Below, one piece after another: positions 6,331 through 62,140 of a DNA stretch of 64,000 nt. The stretch's first letter is position 1, and every line of letters begins with the position of its first letter. The notes beneath the pieces are model-generated. The model ran no database searches. It saw nothing but the letters and a program-made list of their open reading frames with translations, and was not told the origin of the DNA. The stretch comes from Heterodontus francisci (Eukaryota), in the NCBI RefSeq assembly GCF_036365525.1, contig NC_090373.1:104035692-104099691 (forward strand), in the 5' to 3' direction. Made by a program: the position numbers and the translations under genes.

Positions 6331-6465
6331 TCAGTTCTGATGAAAGGTCATCAACCTGAAACATCAACTCTGTTTCGCTCTCCACAGATGCTGCCGTACT
6401 GGCTAATATTTTCAGCATTTTCTGTTTTTATTTCAGATTTCCAACATCCACAGTATTTTGCTTTT
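6331..6465 (+). mobile_element. Penelope-like terminal repeat with hammerhead ribozyme motif
   Basis: AGTT-CTGATGA-A-AGGT(catca)ACCT-GAAAC-ATC-AACT followed by the family body ...ccacagatgctgcc...cagtattttgctttt. Confidence 0.78.
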
Positions 6466-6985
6466 GTAGCTAAGCACATAACCCTTTTTGTCATTTACAG
6501 TTTCAGAAAATAATTACTGCCCTACCTCCTATTTATTTTGATGTTTTTCCCTGCTCTACACCTTCCCCAAGCTCATCTTTTCCAGGAGTGTTAATTCCTG
6601 TACCATTGACCTTCTCTCCAACCAACCACTGATCACCTAACTTCCCAACCCACTCCCCATGGCTCCCAAGATAGTGGATATTGTCAAATTTTCCCTTTCT
6701 TCAAGCACCCTCCTCTCACTTTCATCATCAATCCTCTCTCAGAAAACCCACCCTTGGCTCATCCATCCTCTCAATATCTCCCCATCTCTGACCTTTCCTT
6801 CCTGCTTGCCAATCACCCCTGTTCGCATTGATTCCCTGCCCCCAAATGAATTACATTTCCAGTCTATGAGTCTTAAATGCCTACACAGTTTCATCCCACC
6901 CAATCTTTGCTATCTCCTCTAATTTTAAACCCCCAGAACACTATGTACATCCACTCTTCCCCTTGGTTATCATTGATAGCAGCTA

Positions 6986-8062: not shown

Positions 8063-8710
8063 GCATTTTTGGCCATCTTAGCCCTGCTCTCTAACTTCCT
8101 CCCTAAACCCTTCCATCTTTACACTCTCTCAACTTTAAAATCCTTCTAAAAGCTCATATCTTCAGCCAAGTGTCCAGTAACCCCCTGTTAATATCTCCCT
8201 TTGTGGCTTGTTATCTTCTTCAACAATTTCTATTTTATGTAGCATGTTGGGACACTTTTTATGCTGGAGAGGGGAGGACCAGTAACATTCAATCACACTC
8301 CTTGGTAAATCCTACATGGGGCACTGGAGTGCTGTTGCAAGGAAATGTTCAATTGTTCTGTGTAAATACATAATCTCTGTAATGCCAAGGGGCATTTGTC
8401 AATATTAAAAGGTGTAATAAAAAATAAAAGGTTTTGTCACTGAGAAGTTTCTAAATCTCCAAACAAATTCCATAAGAATCACAAACATTTTGAATTCTGT
8501 GTTCCTTTGAAGCACTTTTCAGTTTTGATTAAACACTAACCTCGAATAACCCAACTTCAAGAAAACACTTTCTCAATTTCCTTTCATTACGGGGATGTAC
8601 TGTCAAATTTGTTTTGCTTTAGAATTTCCTTTCAACTGTTTGAGTGTGACTGTCGGCTGCTGTCAGATTGAATCTGCCATTGCACTACAGCAAGGGGTAA
8701 TGTGAAGTTA

Positions 8711-8917
8711 AAACAAAAAGTGCTGGAAATACACAGCTGGTCTGGCAGAATCTGCGGGGAGAGAAACAGAGTTACCGTTTCAGGTCTGTGACCTTTCCCA
8801 GTCCTGAAACATTAACACTGTTTCTCGCTCCACAGATGCTGCCAGACCTGCTGTGTAATCCCAGCACGTTCTGTTTTTATTTCAGATTTCCAGCATCCGC
8901 AGTATTTTGTTTTTATT
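8711..8917. mobile_element. Hairpin Penelope-like repeat insertion with 14-bp TSD
   Basis: Inverted arms; GTAATGTGAAGTTA duplicated at 8697-8710 and 8918-8931. Confidence 0.85.
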
Positions 8918-11900
8918 GTAATGTGAAGTTAGTTGTATTTATTCAACTTTTAGAGCCATCACATTGTCACAACATTCGTAGAATTAAACAGTAACAGTAG
9001 TCAAATATTCATCACTACCATAATGATAAAATGTCAAAGCCGTTACATTGTGTGGTAAAAGCAGAATCAATTCAGATTAGAAAAGAAATTCAGAACAAAA
9101 ATATGCTAAATGACATAAGCTGTGACATGTCACAAGCTCCAAAATCTTTCTGTGGAACCCCCAAAACATTTAAAAATAAAATTTTGGAAACATTTAATAA
9201 ATCACAAGTATACTCATAACCATCAATTTGATATTAAAACTTAATTGAATAAATATCCTTGGGGTGAAGCAGTTAGTCAGAAAAAGCCTGTTTGAATCCC
9301 AGCCAAGTCTGAAAGTCAGTATCTTCTATGCTACCTCGCCACCCACCCCATAGTAATTTGTCAGGTCCAGCGCTATGAGGTAAAACAGTACTCTGATTTG
9401 AGATGGGGCAAGAAGAAATACAAAACAGCTATCAACTAGTCAGTGACCTAACTGACCCAACAAAGTGCAATACCTTACCCGATAAGGAGCTGCATTGATG
9501 GCAACTACTGAGAATTCTGTAAATTAACATGGCCTGTCATCCTTGATAAAGGAGAACAGCACAAAGCCATTACAGCAAAGCAAGAAGGAATAAAAGAAAA
9601 GACTAGATAAGATCCTCCACTACTCTGACTTATCTATAAGTGTACACGTATGTGGGTAACCACCATTAGGACTTACACACTGTAATATCCAGTAACCAAG
9701 ACAGAAAGGGACCATGAAAACCTTATGATTGACTAGATAAATTTCCTTGTGCTACAATGAAACAGCTGATCAGCTATGACATGTAAAATACACATGACTT
9801 CTGAATCTACAGAACAGATTGCAGCACAAAAACAACAATTTCCTCTGCAGCAATATCACAAACACAATATTTTTAAATCAGTTTATGATTTCAGTATAAA
9901 TAAGGCATAGAGGAAATGAACACCTCAGGTCTCATGGCTCTGAGACTGAATCTTCCTGCATCAGCCCAAGCAGGCAGCCTTGGAAGATCTGTAGCACTTG
10001 ATCTAATACAGGTTATGAAAATAATTTCATAATTTTATATGGATTTCAGTTGTACAACTCAATCTAGTATTTTCCGATTTAACTGACTTCTTGGTTTGCA
10101 GCATCCCCTGCTGGAGCTATTAACGAGTACACATTTTTTTTCAGAGATGAACTGAAAAGTTCACTACAATTATTGTCCTTGTTATGGGAAGCCTCAGTCA
10201 CACAGATGAAGGCAAATCTGGAAAACCATACACCTGGCCCAAGCATAAATTTCTGACATACTATTCCCATTATGTAACATGTAAAAAATGGAAATAAACC
10301 CTAAATAGGATTCACCTTCACTGGAGTAGAGGCCTACAGAAGCCTAAGGGTTTAAAAGGTCAAAAGAGCCATGAAAGGATAAATGATTTCCTGAACTTTA
10401 TACATAAGAACACTGAACAAAAAAAACAAGGAGGTGGCAGTGAACCGGTACATAGCATTATTCAGGGCACAGACACAATGTTGTATGCAGTTTTGGGCAC
10501 CCCAATATGAAAAATATTAGAGCCCTGAACAAAAGCACAACACTGATTTACCAGTTGGCAACTGGGTGAGAGAATATATTTATAAATGAAACGTCCACAA
10601 ATTGCTGGAGTTTTATTCACAGGAGCAGAGGAGGTTAATGCATGTCGTGACTAACAGAAATAAAAAACGGAAGAGTCTGGTGAGAATAAACAGGGAATGA
10701 TTATTTCCGCTCGTCAATGAATCAGTAACAAGGGGACATAAACTTAGTATTAGTATTTTCAGAGCTTTCTTAGATTTCTTAGTCTTCCACTACCTGAAAC
10801 AACCTCTGCAAAAGTAGCAGCAACAGCATTATGCATGCATATCAAGCAACCATTTTGTAGCTGGGGTAGGATTTTTAAAAAAGCATTCGGGTGGACATAT
10901 GACTCTATGGGTTCTATTTTGACCTTTGGGCATCCAACTGGCAGAGCATGCCAAACAGGTTCCCTGGATTGAAGTCTCAAAATCAGGCCGTAACGGCTGG
11001 CAGCAAAGCAAGTTGCAGTGGAGTGCAGCTGGGTCTTTTCGGTTCCATCACATGTGGTGCAGTGTGCAGGCTCTGACCAGTTCAGACCTTAAATGGTAAT
11101 CTAGGTCCTATTTATATCATAAGACCACAATTTCCATATTAAAAAAGTCCTATCCCTGAAACAGGCACTTACGACACCAGTTGGAAGACCCTTTTCAAAA
11201 TGGAGCAGGCCAGACAGCCGTTGTTAACAGAGTGATTAGACACTAAAGCCATTTTGAGTCCTTTACCATTAGCACTAGGCTAACACAGTCTAAATCAGCC
11301 CTAATTTATTTTGGTTAGGTTTAAGTGTGTACTCAAACACTGTCTCCTGTTAGAGTCCCACCTAATGGTATGAAAATCATAGTTCCAGATGACACTGCAG
11401 CAGAAGGACTTCTTTGAAAAAAATTAAAAAGACAATGATGACCATTTGTTATTAATTTTTGCAGGTACGGCAGGCATGAGATGGAAAAAGTTAATTTTAA
11501 GCCAGGAACTACACTTAAGTCTTGATCCAAGCACACTTTTTTACATGTGGCTAAAGTGAGAAGCTGTGAAAAATTGTTCGAGTCACACAAGATTTCATTT
11601 ATATGCTGCTTTTGAAAGAAAAATCTGTAGACTATCATTTCTGTGAACACAAACTAATGTTGGAATCTTTTTACATTTGTGAGCTACAAAGCTTTAAAAT
11701 GTTGTATGGTGCTTTGGTTGCATTGCTTCAGCCAGATAGTTCTGCTAATGCATGCTGTAGCCCTGCAAAACACGATTCTCAGGTACATTATGACCTCAAG
11801 TTTATTATTTATAGCTTCCCTGCAAACAAATATTCCCAAAATAGATGAATAATTTTTATGCACAATTTCTAAAATGATAATCAGCAACATCTCAGTAATA

Positions 11901-18852: not shown

Positions 18853-20337
18853 TGTTACAGACAGGTAGAAAGGGGCTTGGGTGGTTCCCACTGTTCACCT
18901 CCCAACTGATTGCAATTGCGTTTTGTTAAAAATGGTGTTAGTCCCAGAGTGTTTTTTAGGGTCAAATAAACAGACAAATTATATATTTTTTAACCTAACA
19001 GAAAACCTAACTATTTTTTACACAATTCCCAAAATGGTCGCAACCTCCCTCACACACATACATACACCAGAATAGATAGATAGAGAGAAAATGGTAGAAT
19101 GTCGTTCAAAATGAGGTAGGTGTTCATGGTTTATGGTAAACCTGTTGAATGTTCTCAGAAGGACAACCTCTTTTAAAGGTGTTTATAGCCTTGAACATTT
19201 TGTAAATTTCTGACAGTTAAGACTTCAGACTGGATATGGTGGTCACTTTCAGTTCTCTACTGCAGCAAGTTAAGTGTAGAATTAACAACAGGGCTTCTTC
19301 TTGCTGGACTGGATCTCTTTTCACAGCCTCTAGCTGGACTGCTTTCAGAAGGTATTGGCTTGATCTCTCCACTCTCCAGAGGGCTACCTTTTAAGGTAAA
19401 AATCCATCACATCAGAATTTCTGTGAGAAGACACAGGTCCTTCCCCCCTGGTGTGACCACACAATGGACCAGGATGTGGAATCAATGGCTAGCTATTGAT
19501 ATAAAAGCAAAATACTGCAGATGCTGGAAATCTGAAACAAAAAGAAAACGTGCTGGAAATACTCAGCATCTGTGGAGACAGAAGCAAAGTTAACATTTCA
19601 AGTCTGTGACCTTTCATCAGAACTGGCAAAGGTTAGAAAAGAATTAGGTTTAAAGCAAATGAAGGGGAGGGGGGTGGGGGAAGAGAACAAAGGGGAAGTG
19701 TTTGATAGGACAGGGGAGATTAAATAACAAAGCTGTCCTGGGACAAAGGCAAAGCGTGTGCTAATGCTTGTGGTGAAAGACTAGCATTAGTCCAGAGAGA
19801 CTGTTAATAGCGGAATAATGAGTAGCTCTGACTACATGATTTTATTTTTTAACCACATGCCTGCTTTTCATGCACACTCTTTGCCTTTGTCCCAGGACAG
19901 CTTTGTTGTTTAATTTCTCCTGCCTTATCAAACACCTTCCCCTTTGTTCTCTCCCCCACCCCTTCACTTGCTTTAAACCTAATTCTTTTCTAACCTTTGC
20001 CAGTTATGATGTGGCTACTTCACACCTATTCGTTCTGGTTTAGGCTGAGTTAGATTGTCTCCAGCATCCTCTTTTAATTCATTCATGTCGATAAGAGTCA
20101 TTAATATGTGATAGTCCTCCTTTCAATTTGAAAGGCGTTCTCCCCAGAGCTATTTCAGACGAGGTTAACGAGTTCCATCTGTGTAGACAAATTTGTTTAT
20201 TTTCAGCACAGGAAGGGGTCACGTGACCACTACTCTATTTTAATTGTGGGACCAGTGTCCATGTTCTTGAGATTTTGTTTAACAGTTGACTTTTTAAATC
20301 CATAATTCTTCCATCATGGCTTCTTCCACACATGACA
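18853..20337. mobile_element. Diverged solo-LTR-like element with nested Penelope-like hairpin
   Basis: Starts tgttacagacaggtagaaagggg (similar to the other LTRs), ends catgaca; flanks atac/atat (3 of 4 match). Confidence 0.55.
19500..20011 (-). mobile_element. Penelope-like terminal repeat with hammerhead motif and inverted partial copy
   Basis: Minus strand AGTT-CTGATGA-A-AGGTC(aca)GACTT-GAAA-TGTT-AACT at 19588-19624; about 19620-19770 is inverted at about 19870-20011. Confidence 0.8.
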
Positions 20338-36312: not shown

Positions 36313-37049
36313 TAAATCCAAAAAACAGCTCTAAGTTCAAATATCATACAATATGTGAATGTTTCATGCATCATGAAATAAATCTAATAATAGATTATGG
36401 CAACAGTTAGAACCAATTAATCCCTTTTTGTTACATTTTTCCTTTAACAGACCTTGCACTCCCTGCAATTCTGTGAGCCAACATTCAAACATAGGAATTG
36501 CAGATCTCTCTGAACACTTTTTACACTTAGCCTGATCATTTCTAAATGCACTAGGACTGAGGAGACAAGGTTTATGATCTCTGTACTTTTTTCATTATCA
36601 GTCCTGTTGTGGCATAGGATTTGATGCCAGTAGTATTGTTAGCCCCTGTAAGCACAACAACAACATTCATAAAGCGCCTTTAACACAGAATAACATCCCA
36701 CACAGCCATATGGAAAAAATGGACACTGAGGCATGAAGTGACTGAAAGCTTGGTTAAAGAGATGGGTTTTAAGAACAGTCTTAAAAGCAGCAGGGAGATG
36801 GTTGCAAAGTAGAAGATTTAGGGAGGGAATTGCAGAACACAGCCAACAATGAAGGAGGTGGGGGCACAGACAAATGAAACCCTTAACAATGAGTCAGCAT
36901 AAAGTCAAACAAGGCCAAGGAAAGCTACTATGTCTCCCCACACTTCCAACACCCACCCCCACCCCCCCAACCAGTGAATCAGTTTTTCTCCACGTTGAAC
37001 ACCACTTGTAGGAAGTAAAGCATGTACTCTAGATAAGGACTTCAATTTC

Positions 37050-37185
37050 CACCATGAAGGGCCATAAGACTTCAAATATTAACTTTTGTTTCTTCTACAA
37101 CAGATGCTGCCTAACTGCCAAATGTTTCCAACATTTTCTGCTTTTAATTCAGGTTGTCAGGATCAGCGGTATTTTGTTTTTTGGC
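37050..37185 (+). mobile_element. Old Penelope-like terminal repeat (decayed hammerhead)
   Basis: catgaagggccataagacttcaaatattaact...cagatgctgcc...gtattttg aligns with the family by eye. Confidence 0.6.
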
Positions 37186-38989: not shown

Positions 38990-40860
38990 CCAAGATAAAA
39001 CATGAGAGGAAGAACAGGATGGACAGAAGTCTGGCAGAGGCAAAAAGCACCGGAGTAAAGAACAGTCCAGAAAAAGAGAGGAAGGATCAGACAGAGAGCA
39101 AATTCGAAGCAGTCTAAAGTGGATCTGAAGTGCATGTATGTGAATGCATGGTAAATAACGTCAGTGAGCTGCAGGCACAAGTTGCCACATGGGACTATGA
39201 TATAGTGGCAATAACAGAGCTAACTCAAAGAAGGGGAGGATTAGAATCTTAATATTCCTGGCCAGAATGAAAGGGAAGGAAAAAAAGAGGGCGGGATGGC
39301 AGTATTAATCAAATAAATGATTGTCGCACTGGAGAGGGCTGATGTAGTTGAGGGGCTAAAGATAGAGTCCATTTGATTAGAATTAATGAATGACAGAGAA
39401 GTTATTGCACCATTGGGCATTTACTGCAGGCCAGCAAAAAATGGGAAGTTGGGGTGAAAATGTGCAGGCAAATTACAGAAAAATGCAAGAACTATGAAGT
39501 AATGGTAATTCGGGACTTCAAGAGTCTTAATATAAACTGCTATCATAGTAGTGTGAAGGACAAAGAGGGGAGGAATTCCTTAAATGTGTACAAAAGAATT
39601 TTCTTGGTCAATGTATTTCCAGCTGAACAAGGAAGTGCTGGATCTAGTTCTGGGGGATGAAGTGGGGCAAGCGGAGCAAGTTTCAGTGGGAGAGAATTTG
39701 GGGCACAATGATCATATCATCAGCAACAAAAACAAGAAATGCTGGATTCACTCAGCAGGTCTGGCAGCATCTGTGGAAAGAGAAGCAGAGTTAACGTTTC
39801 GGGTCAGTGACCCTTCTTCGAAGAAGGGTCACTGACCCGAAACGTTAACTCTGCTTCTCTTTCCACAGATGCTGCCAGACCTGCTGAGTGAATCCAGCAT
39901 TTCTTGTTTTTGTTTCAGATTTCCAGCATCCGCAGTATTTTGCTTTTGATCATATCATCAGGTTTGGAACAGTTATGAAAAAGGACAAGGTACAATCAAG
40001 CATAAAAAATATTACAATAATTTGTATTTATATAGCACCTTTAACATAGTAAAATATCTTAAGGTGCTTCACAGGAACGTTATCAAACAAAATTTGATAT
40101 GGATTGCATAAGGATATATTAGGGCAGATGGCCAAACTTGGTCAAAACTTGTTCAAAGAGGTACGTTTTAAGGAACATCTTACAGGAGAAAAGAAAAGAT
40201 GAGAGGCAGAGAGATTTAGGAGGGAATTCCAGAGCTTAGGGCCTAGGCAGCTGAAGGAATGGCCACCAATGGTGGAGTGATTAAAATCATGGATACTCAA
40301 AAGGCCAGAGTTGGAGAAGTGCAGATAGCTTGGAGGGTTGTAGAGCTGAAGAAGATTACAGAGATAGGGAGGGGCAAGGCCATGGAGGGATTTGAAAACA
40401 AGGATGAGAATCTGGTTGAGAAGGCTGTTCTTAAAAAAAAAGCATATGGGATTCTCGGCTTTACTACTAGAGGAATACAGTACAAAAGCAAGGAAGTTGT
40501 GCTAAATCTTTATAAAATACTGGTTAGGTCTCAGCTACAGAAGGATGTCAAGACTTTGAAGAATGTTCAAAAAAGATTTACTAGAATGATACCAGGGATG
40601 AGGGACTTCAGTTATGCAGAAACAATGGAGAAGATGGGGTTGTTCTCTTTAGTGTAGAAAAAGATTTGATAGAGGTATCATAAATGGTTTTGATAGGGTG
40701 AATAAATGAAGAACTGTTTACAGCAGATGAGTCGGTAACCAGCAGACACCGATTTAAGGTAATTAGCAAAAGAACCAGAGGCAACATAAGGAAAACTTTT
40801 TTTTAAAAAGCGAGTTGCTGTGATCTGGAATGCACTGCCTGAAAGAGTGAAGCTGCATCA
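38990..40860 (+). mobile_element. Decayed CR1 (endonuclease to 3' RT remnants) with nested Penelope hairpin and L2-like fragment
   Basis: Remnants YVNA..ELQAQVATWDYD, LDLVLGDE..GENLGHNDH, AYGILGF..IQYKSKEVVLNLYK; L2-like 3' fragment at about 40018-40390 (minus). Confidence 0.7.
39725..39946. mobile_element. Young Penelope-like hairpin insertion: perfect 190-bp palindrome + tail, 15-bp TSD
   Basis: 39725-39914 equals its own reverse complement (centre 39819/39820); TGATCATATCATCAG duplicated at 39709-39723 and 39947-39961. Confidence 0.93.
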
Positions 40861-43275: not shown

Positions 43276-44531
43276 TGGCCTGAACAAGGCCACAAAGAAT
43301 GGATAATGTTTCTTAGTTTATGTTTATTTGCCCTGGAAATACATCATAACACCCTACTTGTTTCACAATAACCTTCCAATGCACAATAACCCTCGGGTGT
43401 GTCCCTCAATCAGCAGCATTAAGCACCAATACTGAATGGTGAACATACAGTTGGAGATTGCCCGATCCAAGTATATCATGTACCAGGCATATCATCTGTT
43501 AGTAGAACACACTGTGTATGGGTTTCCAGACACAGACCCATTCCACCGTTTCATCTAGATTTGTCACAAATCTATCTTTTCCATGCAGGGTTCATAAAAT
43601 TTGACATATCTTCATGTCATTCATTGTAGAAAGTTTTCCTAATGCCATCATCTAGATTGTTGATAAAAGTGGTGAAGTGCAACAGTACTAGCATTAATGC
43701 AAGTAGCTAGAGAATTTGATGGCTGACTGCCTCTCTGGATAGACAGCTGCCCTCTGTAAGGGGGCCAAACAAGGTTTGTTCTCAATATACATTTTCTGCA
43801 CCTTTTTCAGGGATCAAGGTCTTCCCTTGTTCCATATGATAGGGCCCACTTACATCCCTGTGTTTCTTCTCACCCACCACACCAGCAAAAAGTTCTTCAA
43901 ATCCTGACACAGCCAGGAAAACGGGAACTCCTGGTGCAGGGAAACTGGCTCTGCCCTCCTGACATTTGCCTTGTAGGGGGTGGGCGGAGATTCCACCGCT
44001 TAAAAGGTGCGATAAAGAAATGACCACAGATGGCAGAGACTGGCACAACTCTGCAGATCATCGGTGCCCATCCCAACATTTTACAACATGACTGCCCAGC
44101 TGTCGCTGTCGGAGCAGTGGGAATAGTCTGAATGACTGCTGCAAGATGTCACACTTGATGTGAACTTGGGCGAGATACCAAGAGACTGCGGGCACCTGGA
44201 GCACGGACTGTCCGCTGAAATGAACTGGTGTCCTCAGCAAAGAAACTGGAAAAACAAACCGACATTTCCAAACAGACTGAGCTGGCCTTTATCCAGGATG
44301 CCGCCGTGGCACCGCTCGCACATATTTCCCCGGCACTCAAACAGCAGCAAAATTCTGCGAGTGCTGAAAATTTGAAATGGAAACAGAAATCGCTGCAAAT
44401 TCTCCGCCGCTGCCTTTCCAGCGTTTTCTGTTGTTATTCAAGCTGCTCTGTGGGGCCTGATCTGATGTGGAGTTCAGTTACAATCCCACTCCAGATATCA
44501 CCGGGCAGATCCAGGCCGCACTAGGACTCAC

Positions 44532-44609
44532 CGGGAGCCGGAATTCCAGGTTTTCTTGAGCTAAAAGAAGCAAAAACCTCCGAAACACGTCCCGACTGGA
44601 CAGCGCCAT
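44532..44609 (-). CDS. TRMT11: TRMT11 (tRNA m2G10 methyltransferase) coding exon 1
   Basis: Minus strand ATG GCG CTG... encodes MALSSRDVFRRFLLLLAQENLEFRLP, followed by a GTGAGT donor; matches the TRMT11 N-terminus (LLLMAQEHLEFRLP); 78 nt, phase 0. Confidence 0.93.
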
Positions 44610-45547: not shown

Positions 45548-45842
45548 AGAGCAAAATACTGTGGATGCTGGAACTTTGAAATGAGAACAAAAAGTGCCAG
45601 AAATACTCAGCAAGTCTGGCAGCATCCCAAAGCTAATAGACTGAGTAGTGAATTTTCCATGCACTACTTGAAGAGCGGAGTTAACGTTTCAGGTCGATGA
45701 CCACCCAATTCTGATGAAGGGTCATCGACCTGAAACGTTAATTCTGTTTCTCTGTCCGCAGATGCTACCTGACCTGCTGAGTATTTCCAGCATTTTCCTG
45801 TTATTGTGTCAGATTGCCAGGATCAGCAGTATTTTGCTTTTT
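45548..45842. mobile_element. Hairpin Penelope-like repeat between TRMT11 and the ABRA-like gene
   Basis: Inverted arms gcaaaatactgtggatgctgg... / ...cagcagtattttgc; contains the best-preserved hammerhead motif. Confidence 0.85.
45707..45743 (+). ncRNA. Minimal hammerhead ribozyme motif (Penelope-type)
   Basis: Stem I AAUU/AAUU; core CUGAUGA (45711-45717) plus extra A; stem II GGGUC-auc-GACCU; GAAA; palindromic AACGUU in place of stem III; predicted cleavage after GUU (45739). Activity untested. Confidence 0.68.
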
Positions 45843-45892
45843 GGATAGCGGAATATCATTTAATCAGTATTACTGAAAGAGAACGCCCACTG

Positions 45893-46046
45893 ATTGGAAC
45901 TAGAAACATTGTCCAATAGACAGATGGTGCTCCCACCCTCTGCCCTTTTCCATTGGTGCCCCGATGGAATTCACCGTTCTATTGGTTGATTAAACTGTCC
46001 ATCATAATGACCCCGCCCTGAACTACCAGCTGCTGACTTGGTGAGT
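45893..46046 (+). promoter_or_regulatory. CCAAT-cluster/GC-box promoter and putative first non-coding exon donor for the ABRA-like gene
   Basis: ATTGG/CCAAT at 45893, 45913, 45952 and 45981; GC box CCCCGCCC 46011-46018; TG|GTGAGT donor at 46041; candidate acceptors cctactttccAG (46197) and ccttctAG (46242). Confidence 0.55.
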
Positions 46047-46273: not shown

Positions 46274-46738
46274 ATGGCAGAAAGTGGAGGCAATCACATA
46301 GCGCCAGGCATGCCAGGACAGCCCGGAACAGCAAGACTAAAGGAGAAGTGGCAGGAATGGGCCGATGATCATAGAGAGTACCAGAGGTGCAATCCTTTCA
46401 GTGGCTCCCATGCGGTGACTTTGCAGCTGCAGAGAGGGGGAGAAGAATACGGGCATCCTAAAAAGGGGTCTAAAACCGACCAGAGGGGCAAAGATGCACA
46501 TATCCTGGTCGGGAAAGAAGTTGAGGAGTTGCTTTATATTATCAGAAGGAACGGCGAACTCGGGTCGGATGGAAACATTTGTATAACTTTTGGAAGATTG
46601 TTTGATGCCTATGTAACAATTTCCAATAAAGTGGTGGGGCTCCTGCTGCGAGCAAGGAAACACGGTCTGGTTCACTTTGATGGGGAAATGCTTTGGCAAG
46701 GAAGGGATGATCGCGCTCTCATCACATTGCTGGAGTGA
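46274..46738 (+). CDS. Actin-binding Rho-activating protein-like (short ABRA/STARS paralog, Costars domain), 154 aa, single coding exon
   Basis: Intact ORF with good Kozak context (gaaATGG); motifs LKEKWQEWADDH..Q..NPFS, YGHPKKGSKT, ITFGRLFDAYVTISNKVVGLLLRARKHGLVHFDGEMLWQGRDD..ITLL match the ABRA C-terminal actin-binding/Costars region; AATAAA at 47284. Confidence 0.9.
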   Translation: MAESGGNHIAPGMPGQPGTARLKEKWQEWADDHREYQRCNPFSGSHAVTLQLQRGGEEYGHPKKGSKTDQRGKDAHILVGKEVEELLYIIRRNGELGSDGNICITFGRLFDAYVTISNKVVGLLLRARKHGLVHFDGEMLWQGRDDRALITLLE

Positions 46739-46971
46739 AGATAGTTTGCAGTTAATTTGTAGAAAGTAAGGTCGAGTAAGTTATAAAGTTGCACCTTTCG
46801 TTGTGATTACACTGAAGCTACGCTTATCGGAAGCCTTTATTGAAAAACACCAACAACACATCGACAATTTGAATATATTCGTGTCCTGAAATGTACAGGA
46901 TTTATAGTAAAAGATATACGTACTTTATTGCAGATGTCGTAAATACAAAGCTGTAAAAGTTGGTACGGAAA

Positions 46972-47100
46972 CAAAATACTGCGGATGCTGCAAAAGTAAA
47001 CAAAAACTGAAAATGCTGGACACTCAGCGACTTAGGCAGCATTTGTGGAAAGAGAAACAGAATAAATGTTTCAGATCAATGACCTTTTGTCAGAAATGGC
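46972..47100 (-). mobile_element. Decayed Penelope-like terminal repeat in the ABRA-like 3' region
   Basis: aaaatactgcggatgctg...gagaaacag...tttcagatcaatgaccttttgtcagaa; hammerhead core mutated. Confidence 0.7.
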
Positions 47101-48080
47101 GAAACTTACTAGCAGTTTCCTTTTACTTACTGTAAAATTTTTTGTGATTCATTTGTAAATAAGCTATAGCAAACGTACTTACAAAGCTGAACAATTACCA
47201 AGAGAGTTACAATCAGAAACTAACAGCAAAGCTCTGCAAACAGTACCTGTCTTTGGTTACATCCTATTGCATTTATTTATCCTAATAAAAAAGGAACACA
47301 ACAACTTGCATGTGATTAGCATCTTTGAAGTAGTAAAACATCCCAAGGTGATTCAGAGGGGCCTGATCAAACAAAGTTTAACAGGGACCCACAGAGATAT
47401 TAGGAAAAAAGCTTGGCAAGAGGTTTAGGTTGGAGTTAAGAGTTTAGGGCCGAGACATCTGAAGGCACATAATGCGAGCAGCACAAAAATCTTGGTGGGG
47501 GCTGGGGTAGGTGGTAAGGGCTGTTAGAGGTTACAGAATGGGGGTGGGGAGCCCATGAAGGAATTTGAAAAGGAGAATTTAAAAATTGAAGCGATACATA
47601 TTCAGGAACTAATGTAGGTTATCAACCATAGGGATGATAGGTGTACAAACGTTAATCAGTTAAAAAAACAAGTAGATCAGATGTTATGTATTGTGTTAAA
47701 GTCTTGAATAAAGTATTTGATTGTTATAAACCTCTACTGAAACAAAATCAGTAAACCAGCACAATGCACAGTAACACTAACACAAGAAGCTCCTGATCCT
47801 TCAAAATCACAACACTTGTTATTGTATGGCATACTAACAATGTATATCCAAAGATAATGCAACGAGGAGTGATGTCTGACAAGCTTGATAGTTGCCAGTA
47901 GCAGAGAAAACTCCAAAGTTTTATTTTGGTACCAAAAGGCAAGTCACAAGTATACCTAAGGCCCAGCTCATATTCCAGCAATCATGGGTCAGTAAAATGG
48001 TAAATTTTACATATGAACTCGTACATGAGGATCACACTGCCAGTTTCTCATCTACCTTAGATAATCTTGAATAAAGTGGT

Positions 48081-49118
48081 AATAAAAAGAAGAAATGCTG
48101 GAAATACTCAGCAGGTCTGACAGCATCTGTGGAGAGAGAGAGAGAAGCAGAGTTAATGTTTCAGGTCAGTGACCATCAGAACTGGCAAATGATAGAAATT
48201 TAATCGGTTTTAAGCAAATAAAGTGGGGTGGGGCAAGAGGTAACAAAAGGCAAGATGTTGATAGGACAGAGGATCACAGAGAATAACTGACCTAAAGGTC
48301 ATGGAGCAAAGGCAAACGGTATGTTAATGGTGTGATTTTTTTTTTAGATTAGAGATACAGCACTGAAACAGGCCCTTCGGCCCACCGAGTCTGTGCCGAA
48401 CATCAACCACCCATTTATACTAATCCTACACTAATCCCATATTCCTACCAAACATCCCCACCTGTTCCTATATTTCCCTACCACCTACCTATACTAGTGA
48501 CAATTTATAATGGCCAATTTACCTATCAACCTGCAAGTCTTTTGGCTTGCGGGAGGAAACCGGAGCACCCGGAGAAAACCCACGCAGACACAGGGAGAAC
48601 TTGCAAACTCCACACAGGCATTACTGGAATCGAACCCGGGTCCCTGGAGCTGTGAGGCTAACCACTGCGCCACTGTGCCGCCCTGCTGAAAGACAAAGAC
48701 AGAGAGGGTATTAATTGACAGAAAAATGAACAGCCCTGGCCCAAACACAAACATGAAAAAAAGTGGGCAGGTGCATGGTAAAAAATGATGAAACAAACTA
48801 AAATAAAATAAACAAATAATAAAGAAAAAATAACTAAAAATAATAAGGAGGGCCCGTCATGGCTCTGAAATTATTGAACGTAGTGTTCAGTCTGGTAGGC
48901 TGTAACATGCCTCATCAGTAAATGTTCCTCGAGCTTGCGTTGATGTTCACTGAAACACTGCAGCAAGCCCAGGACAGAAATATGGGCATGACAGCAGGGG
49001 AGTTTGTTGAAATGGCAAGCAACCGGAAGCTCAGAGTTATGCTTTCGGACTGAGCAGAGATGTTCCGCAAAGCGGTCACCCAATCTGATTTCCAGCATCT
49101 GCAGTATTTTGCCTTTAT
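48081..49118 (-). mobile_element. Truncated Penelope-like element with GIY-YIG endonuclease remnant and terminal repeat
   Basis: RLGDRFAEHLCSVRK..LPVACHFN..VLGL..RKLEEH (48871-49098); terminal repeat at 48085-48190; inverted tail at 49087-49118; TSD TTGA(A/G)TAAAGTGGT at 48067-48080 and 49119-49132. Confidence 0.85.
48345..48683 (-). mobile_element. V-SINE (HE1-like) nested in the Penelope-like element
   Basis: tRNA-like head (TGGCGCAGTGG, GGTTCGATTCC), V-domain gtgtggagtttgca..tctgcgtgggtttt..ctccggtttcctccc, and a 3' tail matching the CR1 family-A 3' end (gggccgaagggcctgtttc..tgctgtat). Confidence 0.88.
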
Positions 49119-49379
49119 TTGAGTAAAGTGGTGTTGGTCACTCCCATAAGCAATCAGAAAATCTCACTTTCAGCAGTGTGCTTATACTACCCAATATCTA
49201 TTATGTTAGTGTAAACCAAGGTTGTTGTAATAGGACACCTTGTGACCTTAACTGGCAACTTATAAACTGCAAAGAAAGTACCTCCTGCACTTTAGTTTCC
49301 AGTTCCAGGCTACACCTCAGTGTCTTGTTTCAAAGCTGTTTGATGTCTCAAGTGTATTTTTCCTTATACTATCTGAATA

Positions 49380-49885
49380 TTCCATTGTTGGCTTCCCAAC
49401 TCCTCCATCCATAAACCTCTCATTACTCACATTAAGTTCTGTTTGCCCATAATCTCTATACCCTCAACCTACATTGACTTCCAATCCAGAAACACAATTT
49501 TAAAATTCTCATTCTTGTTTTCAAATTCATCAATCCTCTCTATCTCTGTAACCTCATCTAGGCATAAAACTCAGAGCGATCTGCACTCCTCCAATTCTGG
49601 CATCTTGCACATCCCCAATTTTAAACACTCCACCATTGGCAGCCGTACTTTCAGCTACCTCAGCCCCAAGTTCTGGAACTCCTCCACCCCAAAAAAACGT
49701 CTGCGTCACTCTAACTTTCCTCTTAACATTCTTTAAAACCTACTTCTTTAATAAAGTTTTAGGTTAGCTGCCGTAATATCTCCTTATGTAGCTCAGTGTC
49801 AAATTTTGTTTGATAACATTCCTTTGAAGTGCCTTGGGATGGTTTACTACATTCAAAGCACTGTTTAGATACAAGATATTGTTGA
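49380..49885 (+). mobile_element. L2-like LINE 3' fragment
   Basis: Remnant STIGSRTFSYLSPKFWNS; similar antisense fragments near 36660-36860, 40018-40390 and 47305-47640. Confidence 0.65.
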
Positions 49886-51735: not shown

Positions 51736-54138
51736 CTTTGGGAGGGTAAAAAGTCCATATTATGGTAAGCTGGGTACAATGTGTGCAAAACATGTTAGTA
51801 TTTGCTAATAATTCAGACTCCAAAAATAACCATAATCTATAATTGAGACTGAGTAATGCAATGTATTCTTTGTTGAAACCTAGCTGACACTGATAGCATG
51901 AAATTCTCCTCTGCCTATTGCCTCTGTGGGTTCTATGTGAAATGAGTTTGGACAGTCTCAATCCAGTTCCCAGTAAGCATGCAGCACTAAACAATTTCCA
52001 TTTAATTTAGCAGCGTTATGAAAAAAAGGTGGTTGGTGCAATAAATCATTGATGCAGCAAGGATTACTAAGGTACAAAGCTGGACAGAGTCAAAAGCAGT
52101 TTGTTCCACATCTAGCCGTGCTACATATACACATATATTCTCTACTGTGGTTATATGAACATACCAACATAGAATTTACATGTATTCATTTGCTTTTTAG
52201 TTTGGTTCAATCTATAGTTATCAGTAGTGAGAATATAGGCACAAGAAGGTACTATATAACCACCTAATCTTTAAATATAAAAATGAAGCAAATCCAAAAG
52301 ATTAACAGCCTTTTTCATCTTTCTACTGTTGCTTTTTTTGAACATTTTTATTTAAACAGAATTCTTGCAGAAGTTTGAGCAGGATGGTGAGAGAGACGAA
52401 TACTTGCAATTGCAAATGAGATGATCACTACAATAATCCAAGTTATTAGCTACAAATCTGCTGTTTAAATCAGCTCATTCACAGTGCCGGGGTGGGTGGC
52501 GGTGGTATGTTCAACTTCAGTCAAACTGGCCAGGGTGACCCAGCATGACTATTCTACTAATGTCCTCTCCTTGTAGACTCTAATGTTGTCCTTCTCTCCT
52601 ATCCACACAAAACATTTCCAACACTCACAACCCTCTGCTTTCTCTCTTTGCAGAAGACAGCACACAACCTTGGGGAGAAAGAGAGACCTGGCCCAGCAGG
52701 GGGGTGGGGGTGGGGTACCCTCCAATGACTGGTACATTGACGACCAGTGGCAATACATGCTCACCTGGCCCACTGAGGCCTTGTTCCAGGAGGCTGCAGA
52801 TGTCAGCAGCGACTTGCCGTGAAAACATGAGCCTCCAGAGGCACTGTTGCTCGCACATATCAAGAGAGATGTTCCTCTGAATGTAGACCCTGTGTTGGGT
52901 ATCTCACCTCCTTCGACCTGGATCTCTGTGTTCATCTCATCTGCCCTGTCGAGCTGCATGTGGCTGAGGAGAAGACAGCTGATGCTGTTCCTGCTTCTCC
53001 TCTTGTTCCTCAAGGTAGAGCTGTATAAGCCATGCCATGGTGAAGGCTGGCAGAGGGAAGTGCAGCTGAAGGCGAGAGAAGTCCAAGACCGGTGAAGTGA
53101 CTTCTAAGAAGTTGGCAATAGCCAGTCAAGTAGTGAAAGCACTCTGAGAAGCAGTGCTATGAGTATCTGCCTCTCACGTGGCCATGGCTGCAGCTCTTCA
53201 GTTTCACTGACCAAAGGCTTCCCAGTCTGACAGTTTCACTAAAGAAGAACTCCCCGCTGTGCATTCACCTCACTGAATCTGGCAAGTTGTGACAGCTCAG
53301 GAAATAGGTCTGTGGTTGTTAAAGCCAGAAAGCCTGGTTAAAACTATGCTAAATTTAAATAACTTACCCGACAGCTGCACAAGGGTTCCCACTCGCCTTC
53401 AAACCCACCAGGGTGAAACCCAGAAGTGGGCAGGATGATATTGGGATCCCAACCCACCGATACTTTTAGGGGATTTAACTCTCCACATGCACCCAAAACC
53501 TTCTCCCCTTGCCTGGGAAAATTCCCCCCTCTGACTGAGGACTAATTTGCAGTGTTACGAGGAAAAAGCTGGAGTGTAGGGTTAAATTGGACAATTCTTT
53601 CCAACAGCTGACAGAGACACAATGGGCCAAATGGCCTCTTTTTATGCTGTAAATTACTCAGATTATTTTCAGGGCCGTTTAAAGTGTTTTGTAAATCAAA
53701 CACTTTTTGCTTTTGTGCAATTATATTCTTATAAACCTTATGGCCTAACATAGTGTGTGTTTTAATATTCGAGTTGACAGGAGAGCAGCCTATGCAATTT
53801 CCAATGTGAAAGATAACAATAAAAGGGCAATTTAAACCTATGGCATTCTATTTCTTTTGTGTGGCACAAAGTTACATGTTTCAGATCTTAGGAATGCAGG
53901 TCAGTTTATGGAAACTGCCTTTTTGCTGTAAACAAAGAATTGGGAGAAACTCTGAAGTGTAACAGTCTCCGCAAGTATATTTTTCAGCAGTGATCACGCG
54001 ATTGCAATTGAGGACTGGAATCCATCTAACTTATCGTCTTCCTAGCCTGGGGTAACTGAGCCACAGAAGTGCTAAAGCAAATTGGTTTACATTTTCACCT
54101 ATTACAATATTATTCAGCAATAGAAACAAAGTACTTAC

Positions 54139-54265
54139 TGTAATGAACCAGTAGGAATTGATTCTGTAAACCAATCTCGATATAAATCCCATCTGACTGG
54201 CTGGAGCCAGTACATGCAAGTGCAAGTGAGTTATTGTGCAGAATGGAGGCCAGTGAAAGCCCAGC
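54139..54265 (-). CDS. HINT3: HINT3 coding exon 4 (histidine triad HLHLH)
   Basis: tacAG|(R)[42 protein letters not shown]|GTAAGT; 127 nt. Confidence 0.97.
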
Positions 54266-55000
54266 CTGTAAACAAATCCAATATCTTGGTAACTATGAGC
54301 AACATTGTTGATCACAATAATCACAAAAATCACAGCAGCAAAACTGCAAAAAACAACTGAATGAGGTCAGTTAAATGAATCTTGAAAGTGTTCATTCATA
54401 TTTAAGTTTTTTTTTGTGCCGTCAACATAATCTGTAAGTACACCATTAAACTTGTGAAAATAATTCAACCCAAGCAAGTTACAGGAAATGTACCAAAATG
54501 TTTACAGTAAAATTGAAAATGAGATGTAATATGCTTTGAGTGTAGTTTTAATTTTGCATTGTTATGAAAACCTGCTGTTCTTTTCACAATGTTTAGACAA
54601 TGAGGATAATTGTTCCGTAGGTTAGAATATTGCAGCAAAATGCCTGCCACCAGCATGTACTCAGAAAATAACCCTCACTGGGCCAGCTTCCTTTGCCATG
54701 CTATGCTAGGTTAAATTTAAATACAAGAACTAAACTTTGCTCAGCTACTGTACAAATTGAAATACCTTTTTAAAAGCTGAACTGCCAATAGACTTCACAA
54801 AACAATGTTGATTCACTTCAAAGTTTGACAGAATGCTAGATCATAGTTTATTTTTAATTGGTCTGAGCGCAATAGATAACTTTCTTGAAAACTAAAAAGT
54901 CCAGAGGCAGCTATCAAACTAACAAATGTAATAACCATAACTTTTTCAGAATAGTATTTAGTTAACATACACTGTTAGTTTTCTGCAGTACTGTACATAC

Positions 55001-55070
55001 CTCACATCTGCCAGGTCATCGATACCCTTTTCTTGTAGTACATTTTTTCCAATGTTCACCATCTTCTGAA
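55001..55070 (-). CDS. HINT3: HINT3 coding exon 3
   Basis: atAG|(V)QKMVNIGKNVLQEKGIDDLADV(R)|GTATGT; 70 nt. Confidence 0.92.
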
Positions 55071-56179
55071 CTATTCATTAAAACAGAATTTTACAAATTA
55101 AAGCATACTATTGAAATATATCTTAGCCATAAATGATGTACATCAGGACCAACATGTAAAATAGGAACCAGTAGTGTAAAACTACAACTGAGTTAGCACT
55201 CTTTAGAACCCAGTCCTCTCCCATTTTAACTGCCAGCTACCTTTCAATTACATTTTGGTCATATGTAGGTGCAGCACAATGAGACTTCTTGCCATGTCTC
55301 CCTCCTACAACTGGGAGTCTTGTAAGATGAAGTGGGACACATGTAATAGGAATTACCAGTGTTGGCAACATTAAGACAATGGTTAAACAGGCAGAGTACC
55401 AACCACCTGCTCTCTCTGAATTGCTGGTACAGAGAAGACACCAATCATGGGAATATAACAGGACAGAATAATACAAATCAACCTAATATTCCATCCAAAG
55501 GAAAACACAAGATTGCTTTATATTTCAAATAGGAATTGGTTCAATAAACCTCCGTTGATCTTACCCCCACCAAGATAGTGTAACATCATCCACAAATAAC
55601 TGTGTACGCTAACTATGATTTAAAATACTGGAAGTGGACGCTGAAGGCAACAAGAATAGCATCTGTAGTGTGTCCAAAATTCTAACTAGAATGCAGTTGT
55701 CTTTCATCCTGTGTAAATAAAAGTCATCTTTTCAGCTGTGGTACAGCATTGTCAAATACAATACAAGAAAAAATTGTTTTTGCCATGTACACAATGCTAT
55801 CTACTCCACATCGTGGGGTATTCTCAAGTAGGCTAAAGTTCTCTAGAAGCTGTTCAGACAAGGATGCTAGCAGAAGTTTGTGCTGATGCCTGAACTTCTA
55901 ATGCAGCTTTCAAATTTTAACTTTTAAAAGAAATACTAGATTTACAGATGTGACCAGGAAGTGAACATGCCACCAAGTGAATCATTTATGTGGACCTAAT
56001 GTATTTTTTGCATCTAAACTTGGTCTTTGGTCTGTCAGAATTGATCTTAAGAGGAGTTGCTTTTTTGAAGATTGTTCATGAAACACATTTGCAAAGTTTT
56101 CACAAGCACTGTTCAATTGAAAGAGGATGCAGTAGAGTGTTGTAATATGATTTGGAAAATGAAGTGAATGCAATCTCAC

Positions 56180-56297
56180 CTACTGATATGTGTTCCTTCT
56201 TCAGAGATTTGCAATTTCCAATGTGTTTTCTTGGCACTACAAGATAATGATGGGGTGCACCAGGTCGGATGTCCCTAAAACAAGCAAATTGCTCATC
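56180..56297 (-). CDS. HINT3: HINT3 coding exon 2
   Basis: ttcAG|DEQFACFRDIRPGAPHHYLVVPRKHIGNCKSLKKEHISV(V)|GTGAGA; 118 nt. Confidence 0.96.
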
Positions 56298-56496
56298 CTG
56301 AATAAAAAAAATGCAGCGTTTTAAATTTTAACATCTTTTTGACTAATTATTTTAATAATGATACAGCAATTTAAAAACATAAATGTGGTCATGTATGAAA
56401 CACTGATCAGACTAGGAACTTACTTGTGGACAGAAATTTATGATTATTTTTAATTTCTCAACTGAATATTCATTTAAGACAATAGGTTAAAATATA

Positions 56497-56647
56497 TAAA
56501 AGCAAAATCCTGCAGTGCTAGAAATCAAATTAAAACAGAAAATGTTGGAAATACACAGCAAGTCAGGCAGCATCTGTGAAGAGAGAAACAAAGTTAACAT
56601 TTTAGGCCGTTGGGTTCTGCTGAAAGATGCTGCCAGACATGCTGAGG
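56497..56647 (-). mobile_element. Partial Penelope-like terminal repeat in HINT3 intron 1
   Basis: aaagcaaaatcctgcagtgctagaaatc...ggcagcatctgtgaagagagaaacaaagttaac plus a short inverted piece. Confidence 0.7.
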
Positions 56648-57584
56648 TCAAGATATATGCTATGCTACAACCAATATTTGTTAAATTAGTGATAGAACAA
56701 GCAATATTTTAAATTTGCTACTCTTAGTGGATATTGCAATACAAGGCTGGTCACAAATTAGACATTAGCACAATTACTTAAAAAAACCCTGGATAAGTGC
56801 ATTTTGCAAACTCCTGCAGAGACATCATCGGTGTTGCTATTGGTTAGTACAATAGGCAGGATGTCCAAGTAACAATGAAATTCATTGGAGGCTAGCTAAC
56901 ATTTCATGCGACCTTTAACTCCAATGAGAACATCAGTATCATATCCACTCATCCCAAATAACACATTTTAGTTTATTACAAAAATAACATGTTTTCCTCT
57001 CCAATTCTCTCTTTTCCCCTTATCTGCTTAAAGTATTGGCACAGATACTGAAATTGAAACACAGAATGAGACCATCCAACCTAATATGTGCAGAGTCAAA
57101 AAGTATCACAAAACCCCAGGACAGAAAGTAAAGGTGCCTCATTCTTCACATGCCTAGACAGTGAGCATCAACAGGCTGATGGGATAGGGGCACCACAGCT
57201 AAACCTGAAGCTTCCTTCTCCACCCAACATTCACCATCATGCACCCTTCAGCAGGGCTCATTGGATAGCAATCAGGACTTTATTCCTAGCCAAGGGCACT
57301 GAAATCAACTGTAGTTCCCGCCACCCTCAGTTGAAAATAGTTAACTTTGCCCAGATTGATGATTAAATCCAGAACCTTCCTAACCTGGATACTCTATCAC
57401 ACAAGGTGGCCAATCGATTCATGAGCCCATATGGGAACTCTAAATGAAATATCTATTATTCACTGAAGCATTTACTGAATCTGTCCCCTTCTCCATCCTG
57501 CTGTCAAGACCTTTAGCCATAGTTCTGTTATTTCAATGTTTGATTTTTCCAACATGTATCTCACTGGCTTCCCAGCTTCCACTC

Positions 57585-58145
57585 ATGGGGTGTGGGCGCT
57601 ACTGGCAAAGCCAGCATTTGTTGCCCATCTCTAGTTGCCCTTGAAAAGGTGGTGGTGAGCTGCCTTCTTGAATCCCTGCAGTCCATCTGGTGTCAGTACA
57701 CCCACAGTGCTGTCAGGGAGGAAGTTCCAGAGGTTTTGATACAATAATACTAACGGTGATATTGTTCCAAGTCAGGATGGTGTGTGGCTTGGAGGGGAAA
57801 TTGGTGGTGTTCCCATGCATCTGCTGTCCTTGTCCTTCTAGCTGTTTGAGGTCACAGGTTTGGAAGGTGCTGTCAAAGATGCCTTGGTGAGTTGCAGCAG
57901 TGCAGCTTGCAGATAGAAACATACAAAACATAGATTTATACACTGCGGCCACTGTGTGTCGGGAGCGGAGGGAGTGAATGTTTAAGATGGTGCATCAATC
58001 TTCTTGAGTGTTGTTGGAGCTGCACTCATCCAGGCAAGTGGAGAGTATTCCACCACACTCCTGACGTGCCTTGTAGATGGTGGACAGGCTCTGGAGAGTC
58101 AGGAGGCGAGTTACTTGCCTCAGAATTCCCAGTCTCTGACTTGTT
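57585..58145 (-). mobile_element. CR1-group LINE (family B) 3' fragment
   Basis: Antisense family-B 3' end and MHGNTT..PSKPHTILTW remnant. Confidence 0.85.
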
Positions 58146-58244
58146 CTCCCACTCAAATCGCTGCACTCCCATTACTCCTGTGCTTGAAAAGTTCCCTCGA
58201 TCTAGTAGATTGCGGAATTTATAACCATTCACATGCAAGGGTGT

Positions 58245-59568: not shown

Positions 59569-59742
59569 AATTTTCACTATAAATTTAGCATCCATATTTC
59601 GGGCTTGAACTTTGGAGCAACGCTGAAGTGGTGTCGGCTCCCTGCTGTCTGGATTCCCCCCACCCTGACTCCAGCTCCCAACCCTGGATCCTTGCCTCAG
59701 CCTGCCCCCGGGTTCCTCCACCCCACAAGGCCGCTGTCTCAC

Positions 59743-60164: not shown

Positions 60165-62140
60165 GTCATAGAGTTATACAGCACAGAAACAGGCCCTTCG
60201 GCCCATCGTGTCTGTGCCAGCCATCAAGCACCTAACTATTCTAATCCCATTTTCCAGCACTTGGCTCGTAGCCTTGTATGCGATGGCATTTCAAGTGCTC
60301 ATCTGAATCTTAAATGATGAGGGTTCCTGCCTCTATCACCTCTTCAGGCAGTGTATTCCAGATTCCAACCACCCTCTGGGTGAAAAAATGTTTCCTCAAA
60401 TCCCCACTGAACCTCCTGCCCCTTACCTTAAATCTATGCCCCCTGGTTATTGATCCCTCCGCTAAGGGAAAAATTTTCTTCCTATCTAACCTATCAATGC
60501 CCCTCATTATCTTGTACACCTCAATCATATCTCCCCTCAGCCTTCTCTGCTCTAAGGAAAATAACCCTAGCCTTTTCAGTCTCTTTTCATAGCTGAAATG
60601 CTCCAGCCCAGGCAACATCCTGGTGAATCTCCTCTGCACCCTCTCCAGTGCAATCACATCTTTCCTATAGTGTGGTGCTCAGAACTGTACACAGTACTCC
60701 AGCTGTGGCCTAACTAGCGTTTTATACAGCTCCCATAACCTCCCTGCTCTTATATTCTATGCCTCGGCTAATAAAGGCAAGTATCCCATATGCCTTCCTA
60801 ACCACCTATCTACCTGTGCTGCTGCCTTCAGTGATCTATGGATAAGTACACCAAGGTCTCTCTGTACTTTCTAGGGTCTTACCATCCATCGTATATTCCG
60901 TTGCCTTGTTAGTCCTCCCAAAATGCACCACCTCACACTTCTCAGGATTAAATTCCATTTGCCACTGCTCCACCCATCTTACCAGCCCACCTATATGGTC
61001 CGGTAATCTAAGGCTTTCCTCCTCACTATTTACGGCATCACCAATTTTCATCTGCGAACTTACTGATCATACCTCCTATATTCACATCTAAATCATTAAT
61101 GTACAATACAAACAGCCAGGGTCCCAGCACCGATCCCTGTGGTACACCACTGGTCACAAGCCTCCACTCGCAATAACAACCCTGGACCGTCACCCTCTGC
61201 CTTCTGCCACCAAGCCAATTTTGGATCCAATTTGCCAAATTGCCCTGGATCCCATGGGCTCGTACCTTCTTAAACAATCTCCCATGCGGGACCTTATCAA
61301 AAGCCTTACTGAAGTCCATGTAGACTACATCAACTTGCTGACCCTCATCTACATATCTCATCACCTCCTCGAAAAATTCAATCAAGTTTGTTAGACACGA
61401 TCTCCCCCTGACAAAGCCATGCTGACTATCCCTGATTAATCCCTGCCTCTCCAAGTGGAGATTAATCCTGTCCCTCAGAATTTTTTCCAATAGTTTCCCT
61501 ACCACTGATGTTAGACTCACTGGCGTGTAATTACCTGGTTTATCCCTGCTACGCTTCTTGAACAATGTTACCACATTCGCTGTCCTCCACTTCTCTGGTA
61601 CCTCTCCTGTGACAGAGAGGATTTGAAAATTTGTGTCAGAGCCCCTGATACCTCCTCCCTTGCCTCACATAACAGCCTGGGATACATCTCATCTGGGCCT
61701 GGGGATTTATCCACTTTTAAGCCCGCTAAAACAGCTAATACTTCCTCCCTTTCAATGCTAATTTGTTCAAGTACATCACAATCCCCCTTCCTGATCTCTA
61801 CACCTACATCGTCCTTCTCCATAGTGAACACAGATGAAAAGTAATCATTGAAAACCTCACCTATGTCCTCTGGCTCCACACACAGATTGCCACTTTGGTC
61901 CCTAATCGGCTCTACTCTTTCCCTGGTTATCCTCGTGCCCTTAATATACTTATAAAACAAAAACAAGAAATGCTGGAATCACTCAGCAGGTCTGGCAGCA
62001 TCTGTGGAAAGAGAAGCAGAGTTAACGTTTCGGGTCAGTGATTTTGCTTTTATACTTATAAAATGCCTTGGGATTTTCCTTTTTCTTGCCCGCCAGTGTT
62101 TTTTCATGTCCCCTCTTCATTCTCCTAATTATTTTTTAAG
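60165..62140 (-). mobile_element. CR1 LINE (family A) immediately upstream of HINT3, with nested Penelope repeat
   Basis: KSPGPDEMYPRLL, YTPVSLTSVVGKLLE, GVPQGSVLGP, FADE; same subfamily as 58245-59568. Confidence 0.94.
61958..62050. mobile_element. Penelope-like hairpin insertion with collapsed right arm, 13-bp TSD
   Basis: Left arm nearly identical to 39725-39810, jumps to the tail attttgcttt; TATACTTATAAAA duplicated at 61945-61957 and 62051-62063. Confidence 0.85.

Follow-up and report, generated by a model that had tools for sequence, protein, structure and literature searches.

Minimal hammerhead motifs in repeats that are very probably the 3' ends of a shark Penelope-like element

The short repeat that recurs through a 64-kb stretch of the Heterodontus francisci genome (the window, by which we mean the whole stretch of DNA analysed) very probably consists of the 3' ends (a pseudo-LTR with its tail) of a shark Penelope-like element (PLE), probably from the Neptune clade, whose insertions are 5'-truncated, often inverted and decaying without selection. 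Derivation from a PLE is supported by the arms, the one-sided tail, the target-site duplications and a remnant of an open reading frame (ORF). The window itself displays the anatomy, the duplications, the tails, the decay and, in fold predictions, the masking of the one complete motif. All 11 repeat loci listed by an earlier sequence-only reading of this DNA match the repeat (11/11), the one at 44346 being weak and degenerate. The insertions and their arms are as follows.

45548..45702, minus strand: left inverted arm of the same insertion as 45705..45843, starting within stem II, with a foreign interruption of ~50 nt
45705..45843, plus strand: right arm, a 5'-truncated PLE end (hammerhead, body of ~70 nt, tail), ~13% diverged from the window majority
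45707..45743, plus strand: minimal type I hammerhead, from the window sequence, a descriptor match and the consensus of the rows compared in Fig S3 of PMC4209133
48081..49120, minus strand: longest insertion, with ORF remnant, 3' UTR (interrupted by a SINE-like insert, ~48345-48680), a hammerhead with a 4-nt deletion and a tail-less end at 48081
39709..39961, unstranded: young insertion with a 15-bp duplication, inverted arms identical at 95/95 positions and a 32-nt tail confined to the right; the junction interrupts the core at G5 and the stem II closing pair is G-C
8697..8931, unstranded: inverted insertion that has lost the core, with a 14-bp duplication and a 36-nt tail confined to the right
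61945..62063, unstranded: young insertion whose centre is deleted, matching the 39819 arm at 83/84 positions and flanked by a 13-bp duplication
19503..20011, unstranded: inverted insertion with long arms, intronic, sense to a TRMT11-like gene; the minus arm keeps core and stems, its palindrome decayed to AUGU
6331..6468, plus strand: single arm, core and stems kept, palindrome decayed to ACAU
46968..47103, minus strand: single arm, core broken at G8
37047..37182, plus strand: old degenerate arm, 29% diverged
56497..56646, unstranded: degenerate insertion with a short inverted arm, within intron 1 of a HINT3-like gene
44346..44407, minus strand: weak degenerate fragment without hammerhead, a repeat match

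These loci are not uniform, and five of them (45548, 39725, 8711, 56497 and 19503) are head-to-head inverted pairs. The density of 11 repeat loci per 64 kb is that of a single selected window and should not be assumed to hold genome-wide. Two insertions (39709-39961 and 61945-62063) form a young subfamily, with arms identical at 95/95 positions within an insertion and at 83/84 between loci; the element was active recently.

Target-site duplications of 13-15 bp flank 4/11 loci, one with a mismatch, and none arose in ~1500 random flank pairs; at the other 7/11 loci, the insertion at 45548 included, we found no such duplication. In all four duplication-flanked insertions the tail is confined to one end (32, 36 and 35 nt where whole), and in the longest insertion the tail is inverted (49084-49118) and the duplication spans 14 bp with 1 mismatch (48067 / 49119). 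The insertion at 45548 has a tail on both arms. Inverted, 5'-truncated copies with a tail of 30-40 bp at one end have been described for PLEs, and Neptune1_Ap (Craig et al. 2021) combines this arrangement with a hammerhead near the 3' end (PMC8557442). In the anole Poseidon element (Frangieh et al. 2024, PMC11167929), the hammerhead likewise lies upstream of the tail, which two alternative start sites of reverse transcription account for.

The longest insertion extends upstream of the hammerhead, past the later SINE-like insert, into 55 open codons.

48922..49086, minus strand: 55-codon ORF remnant, then a frameshift, similar to the C-terminal half of a GIY-YIG endonuclease from the Neptune clade

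Compared by eye with the PMC8557442 supplement, ~24/55 residues are identical to the endonuclease C-terminus of Neptune1_Ap, which is a better by-eye match to the 55 residues than the other rows among the 12 printed rows compared. The peptide had no match in Pfam, NCBIfam, PDB, the atlas or a word-seeded protein search, so that the ORF link and the Neptune clade, both drawn from by-eye comparison only, are probable but short of proven. Among 277 window ORFs (14+147+116, known LINE regions mostly excluded) none matched a PLE reverse transcriptase or GIY-YIG family in Pfam, the copies in the window all being too short to reach the reverse transcriptase, and direct tandem pseudo-LTRs, expected at some loci only, are absent from the 64 kb; with neither reverse transcriptase, nor GIY-YIG N-terminal half, nor direct tandem, the window is unlike the Neptune EN+ PLEs of PMC8557442. 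A repeat scan of a bacterial and archaeal genome collection gave 0 matches, and a covariance model made from the copies recovered the arms already identified, with no additional match below E 0.4, a result that is circular by construction. The SINE-like sequence at 48345-48680, which has a poly(A)-like end and sits within the PLE 3' UTR, has related copies at ~32000, 58250 and 60166. The sequence-only reading had described a shark Penelope-derived short-element family: the Penelope origin stands, on the arms, one-sided tails, duplications and remnant, but a separate short family is not established, the insertion at 48081-49120 being a 5'-truncated PLE that reaches into an endonuclease-like ORF remnant.

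The complete motif lies at 45707-45743 as had been claimed, with matching letters and layout. Stem I consists of 4 A-U pairs (AAUU 45707-10 / AAUU 45740-43), the core CUGAUGA (45711-17, C3-A9) is followed by one extra A, and stem II (45719-23 / 45727-31) has 5 bp, a 3-nt loop and a G-U as outer pair. On the 3' side, GAAA (45732-35), CG and UU supply G12-A14, A15.1, C15.2, G16.2, U16.1 and U17; with U16.1 and H17 at 45738-39, the motif has the CUGANGA plus GAAA core required of the PLE minimal hammerhead, and cleavage is predicted after GUU, at 45739/45740. Stems I and II can pair, with the extra base between A9 and 10.1, and stem I is weak. Stem III had been read as the palindrome AACGUU; the palindrome is there, but only its inner ACGU (45735-38) pairs, as the palindromic 15.2-16.2 segment of a dimeric helix III (duplex -1.7 kcal/mol), while the A and U flanking it belong to the core.

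With a descriptor built on the published layout of the PLE minimal hammerhead (PMC4209133), the strict form found 1 match in the window (45711) and the relaxed form found 3 (6337, 19620 and 45711), every one within the repeat, versus 0 in 150 third-order Markov windows. Together with the agreement between the layout and the published consensus, this bears out the assignment to the PLE type of minimal hammerhead. The loose core pattern by itself is only modestly enriched in the window (16 versus a mean of 6.7). An Rfam search of the window, a check that had been proposed, matched no hammerhead model, whether at the gathering score or with E relaxed to 10; the 10 + 10 rows of the relaxed search are hairpin-driven miRNA/snoRNA matches below the gathering score.

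Minimal hammerheads were reported in 2014 from fish Neptune, Poseidon and Xena PLEs (Cervera and De la Pena, PMC4209133). In the portions of that study compared here, they resemble the shark motif in the CUGANGA core, the extra base after A9, the GAAA, the palindromic 15.2-16.2 and the short stem I, and also in being mostly single dispersed motifs with some close pairs on opposite strands. Unlike our case, no shark is among the Fig S3 rows compared, and the window's copies are noted as differing in the 5-bp stem II, the 3-nt loop and, when older, the G-U or A-U at 10.1-11.1. This pair is G-U in the 45707 copy, A-U in 4 rows and G-C in the young subfamily; in the published alignment, G10.1-C11.1 is highly conserved though not invariant, with A-U in some rows (PMC4209133). 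Non-LTR retrozymes (bioRxiv 10.64898/2026.07.22.740005) are similar in carrying PLE-derived type I hammerheads in vertebrates, one of them chondrichthyan, but they are defined as tandem direct units, each with a hammerhead, unlike the dispersed inverted copies of the shark window. We did not adopt this class for the shark repeat, because 0/5 tandem-repeat rows of the window involve it. Among the papers listed, our literature search found no published description of this shark family, and a Repbase or Dfam entry may well exist.

The variation among copies had been taken as covariation. Stem I is AGUU/AACU at 6333 and at 19588-19624 (minus strand), and loop II differs among copies, both as stated; over 11 rows (one of which, 48183, is slightly misaligned), 2 pairs changed on both sides, a value that 76/500 shuffles reach, and covariation of the stems is not above shuffles. 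On the same 11 rows, 87% of 70 stem cells pair versus 9-44% when slid. The AAUU/AAUU form of stem I is confined to the 45707 copy and the inverted arm of the same insertion has AACU, so that the change probably postdates the insertion; a better candidate for a real compensatory change is the closing pair of stem II, where the young subfamily has G-C against A-U. Among 15 arms (fragments 49084, 44346 and 56626 excluded), N7 and loop II are ~3x more variable than the repeat body (14/42 versus 127/1083 cells, p 0.0003, the copies not being independent), and conservation of the core does not significantly exceed that of the body (6/99 versus 112/1015 non-CpG cells, p 0.17), which fits selection on master elements and none on inserted copies.

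Most inserted copies have decayed. The palindromic CG is gone in 7/13 arms, every loss being a CpG-type transition (C-to-T or G-to-A), and 3 of 17 arms retain the core and both stems, a single one of these (45707) retaining the palindrome as well. The survival of this arm may be due to its CpG-rich flanks (CpG o/e 0.58 versus 0.29 for the window), although the 46968 copy has decayed in flanks that are similarly CpG-rich. The core-less left arm (45548..45702) retains the same CpGs as the right arm, which, with the CpG-rich flanks, suggests low methylation over selection. Across 45678-45744 the inner 25 nt of both arms are 24/25 identical versus 60/78 for the outer parts, perhaps through gene conversion or because methylation is low around the centre.

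From fold predictions, the 45707 arm is most likely inert where it stands. In read-through RNA, the left arm is predicted to pair with the right arm across stem II, GAAA and the cut site, thereby masking the hammerhead; the hairpin of the insertion reaches -52.5 kcal/mol over 101 nt (z -8.6, and z -15.6 in a second fold test), and the active-compatible fold lies ~36 kcal/mol above the ensemble (P ~1e-25 in context). For an RNA starting at 45704 this fold is still 6 kcal/mol above the ensemble (P 4e-5), and the all-AU stem I has a pairing probability of 0.03. A two-strand hammerhead dimer comes to -3.9 versus -19.3 kcal/mol for the best fold, which is weak evidence because the nearest-neighbour model omits core contacts. 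The arm has no tandem partner within the window, and published minimal hammerheads do not cleave as monomers and cleave slowly as dimers (PMC4209133; review PMC6765202). In the anole, in an element likely of a different clade, activity of the motif was demonstrated but depended on the element's protein, and RNA-seq gave no reads ending at the cut site (PMC11167929). The inverted arms at 39725-39920, 45548-45843, 19503-20011 and 8711-8891 would yield long dsRNA hairpins in intronic or read-through RNA, possibly as substrates of editing or small-RNA pathways; Rfam miRNA models respond below the gathering score only.

The arm lies in the gap between two genes, ~300 nt upstream of the donor of the second.

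44532..44609, minus strand: first coding exon of the TRMT11-like gene, whose transcription runs away from the motif; its UPF0020 lead scored below 0.9
46274..46738, plus strand: ABRA-like (Costars) coding sequence of the neighbouring host gene; ABRA-like proteins of three sharks match it at 85-88% identity, which identifies the host as a shark

In the ABRA-like gene, four CCAAT boxes (45893-45985) precede a short non-coding first exon whose donor is at 46041. The 45707 copy was rightly placed upstream of the likely ABRA-like start on its sense strand, both the boxes and the donor lying downstream, and for the same reason the arm is probably outside both mRNAs. Further exons of the TRMT11-like gene reach ~14.1 kb on the minus strand, its last exons not being found in the window, and we take the gene order to be TRMT11-like 14100-44609 (minus), ABRA-like 46274-46738 (plus) and HINT3-like 54100-60100 (minus). 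The claim that many host transcripts contain latent cleavage sites finds no support in the window, where 1/17 arms is complete and this one is masked by its inverted arm, has no tandem partner and sits upstream of the ABRA-like donor.

Elsewhere in the window, the first coding exon of the HINT3-like gene holds a 36-bp tandem repeat (59808-59970, minus strand, ~4.5 copies) encoding an acidic 12-residue repeat, and the exon is flanked by a pair of 1.3-kb segments (58248-59567 and 60162-61498) that are 88% identical to each other and retain reverse transcriptase remnants. Long open frames at 52584-52877 (plus) and 52549-53103 (minus), one W/D/Y-rich and both without a Pfam match, are possibly an exon of an unrecognised gene. 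There are also two unclassified repeat pairs (4772-5673 with 15119-15990, and 40014-40411 with 49505-49882) and a GC-rich tandem repeat of 86 bp (62424-62689).

Where the arms begin bears on how they arose. Eleven of 17 arms (8/11 loci) start between -5 and +27 of the 37-nt motif, one of these starts (62041) being a later deletion, and of the remaining arms 3 extend at least 136 nt upstream, one of them into the ORF remnant, and 3 are shorter. None (0/17) starts at the predicted cut, from which we infer that insertions were copied from uncut RNA, as were those of anole Poseidon (PMC11167929). The clustering could reflect stalling of the reverse transcriptase, a 5' motif edge that acts as transcript start or splice acceptor, or a short master. 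Under this last option, a short derivative of a PLE, non-autonomous and either ~135 nt long or preformed as a ~220-nt palindrome, would have its own masters, borrow a PLE protein and make most of the insertions; we consider it possible but rather unlikely, and partly compatible with our preferred explanation. The clustered starts speak for it, as do the 39819 and 62041 arms, 83/84 identical at different target sites, and the non-autonomous PLE derivatives known in vertebrates, one chondrichthyan (bioRxiv 10.64898/2026.07.22.740005). However, the inversion junctions differ by locus (+7/+7, -1/+14, +10/about +20), the three long arms run far upstream, and no tandem arrays of it occur in the window. 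Near-perfect inverted repeats at several loci might instead recall a MITE-like DNA transposon or another palindrome with a hammerhead pattern by chance, a reading in keeping with the lack of an Rfam hammerhead match and with the isolated 45707 motif, which folds no better than shuffles (z -1.15). We find it scarcely credible given the asymmetric ends with a tail on one side, the long and variable duplications, the varying arm lengths and a hammerhead descriptor absent from 150 controls.

Alternatively, the 45707 copy could be an active, co-opted cis-regulatory ribozyme whose targets are upstream or antisense transcripts from the interval that separates the TRMT11-like promoter from the ABRA-like one. 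In favour of this, it is the sole complete motif of the window and lies on the ABRA-like sense strand, one stem I pair is changed on both sides, and the inner arms are more alike than the outer ones. The predicted masking in context and from 45704, the all-AU stem I and the missing dimer partner make this highly improbable, and the CpGs shared with the core-less arm, in CpG-rich flanks, suggest low methylation rather than selection. A further lead concerns splicing.

45738..45764, plus strand: UUAAY resembling a branch point and overlapping the cut site, then a pyrimidine tract and an acceptor-like CAG/ATG (G at 45761), from the sequence

Branch points and acceptors follow the consensus UUAAY, pyrimidine tract, CAG, and here UUAAY overlaps the cut site ~20 nt before the pyrimidine tract and CAG/ATG. 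The site appears to be used as an acceptor in shark gene models: three predicted models (P0122, P0124, P0125) enter the repeat frame at or next to the ATG, a fourth (P0131) does so twice, and a predicted Heterodontus francisci RNF14 isoform starts inside the repeat, 25/26 of its residues being identical to a young copy. The 5 longer and 39 representative protein matches to the repeat reading frame include none with a PLE domain, so that the ATG after the acceptor is not demonstrated as an ORF start. Acceptor-like sites arise by chance on T-rich strands, and the 19624 arm has an acceptor-like CAG within the 5' strand of stem I. In Drosophila virilis, an intron end has been mapped to helix I (PMC4209133), and an intron and a 34-bp repeat are described (PMC2377424). 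One could imagine the hammerhead coupled to splicing and reverse transcription: the 3' splice site ~20 nt downstream would have its branch point where the cut site and stem I (3' strand) lie, and the point at which most copies are truncated would be set by folding of the motif, or else by an acceptor or transcript start located at the motif's 5' edge. Ribozyme folding and spliceosome binding would then be mutually exclusive, because the cut site and the branch point coincide. We judge this coupling very unlikely; if true, at ~1 copy/6 kb and exonised in shark gene models, the repeat would amount to a very large pool of splice-or-cut switches in shark genes.

Returning to 5'-truncated PLE ends as the preferred explanation, active master elements would have kept the hammerhead, and two pseudo-LTRs in one tandem transcript would pair their ACGU palindromes into helix III and be cut slowly after GUU, probably with protein help. 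We infer the cleavage chemistry, the dimer mechanism and the neutrality of decay, the first two from published PLEs. The motif would most likely work only in the master element, and inserted copies would decay neutrally, mostly by CpG loss in the palindrome, otherwise by truncation through the core or by pairing of inverted arms.

Seen in this way, the known association of minimal hammerheads with PLE pseudo-LTRs extends to a very dense and partly young shark repeat. The window illustrates why hammerheads need not damage host RNAs, since truncation, CpG decay and inverted arms silence the copies. With so many copies, the repeat makes a good data set for the role of the ribozyme in the transposition cycle and for the siting of truncation and inversion.
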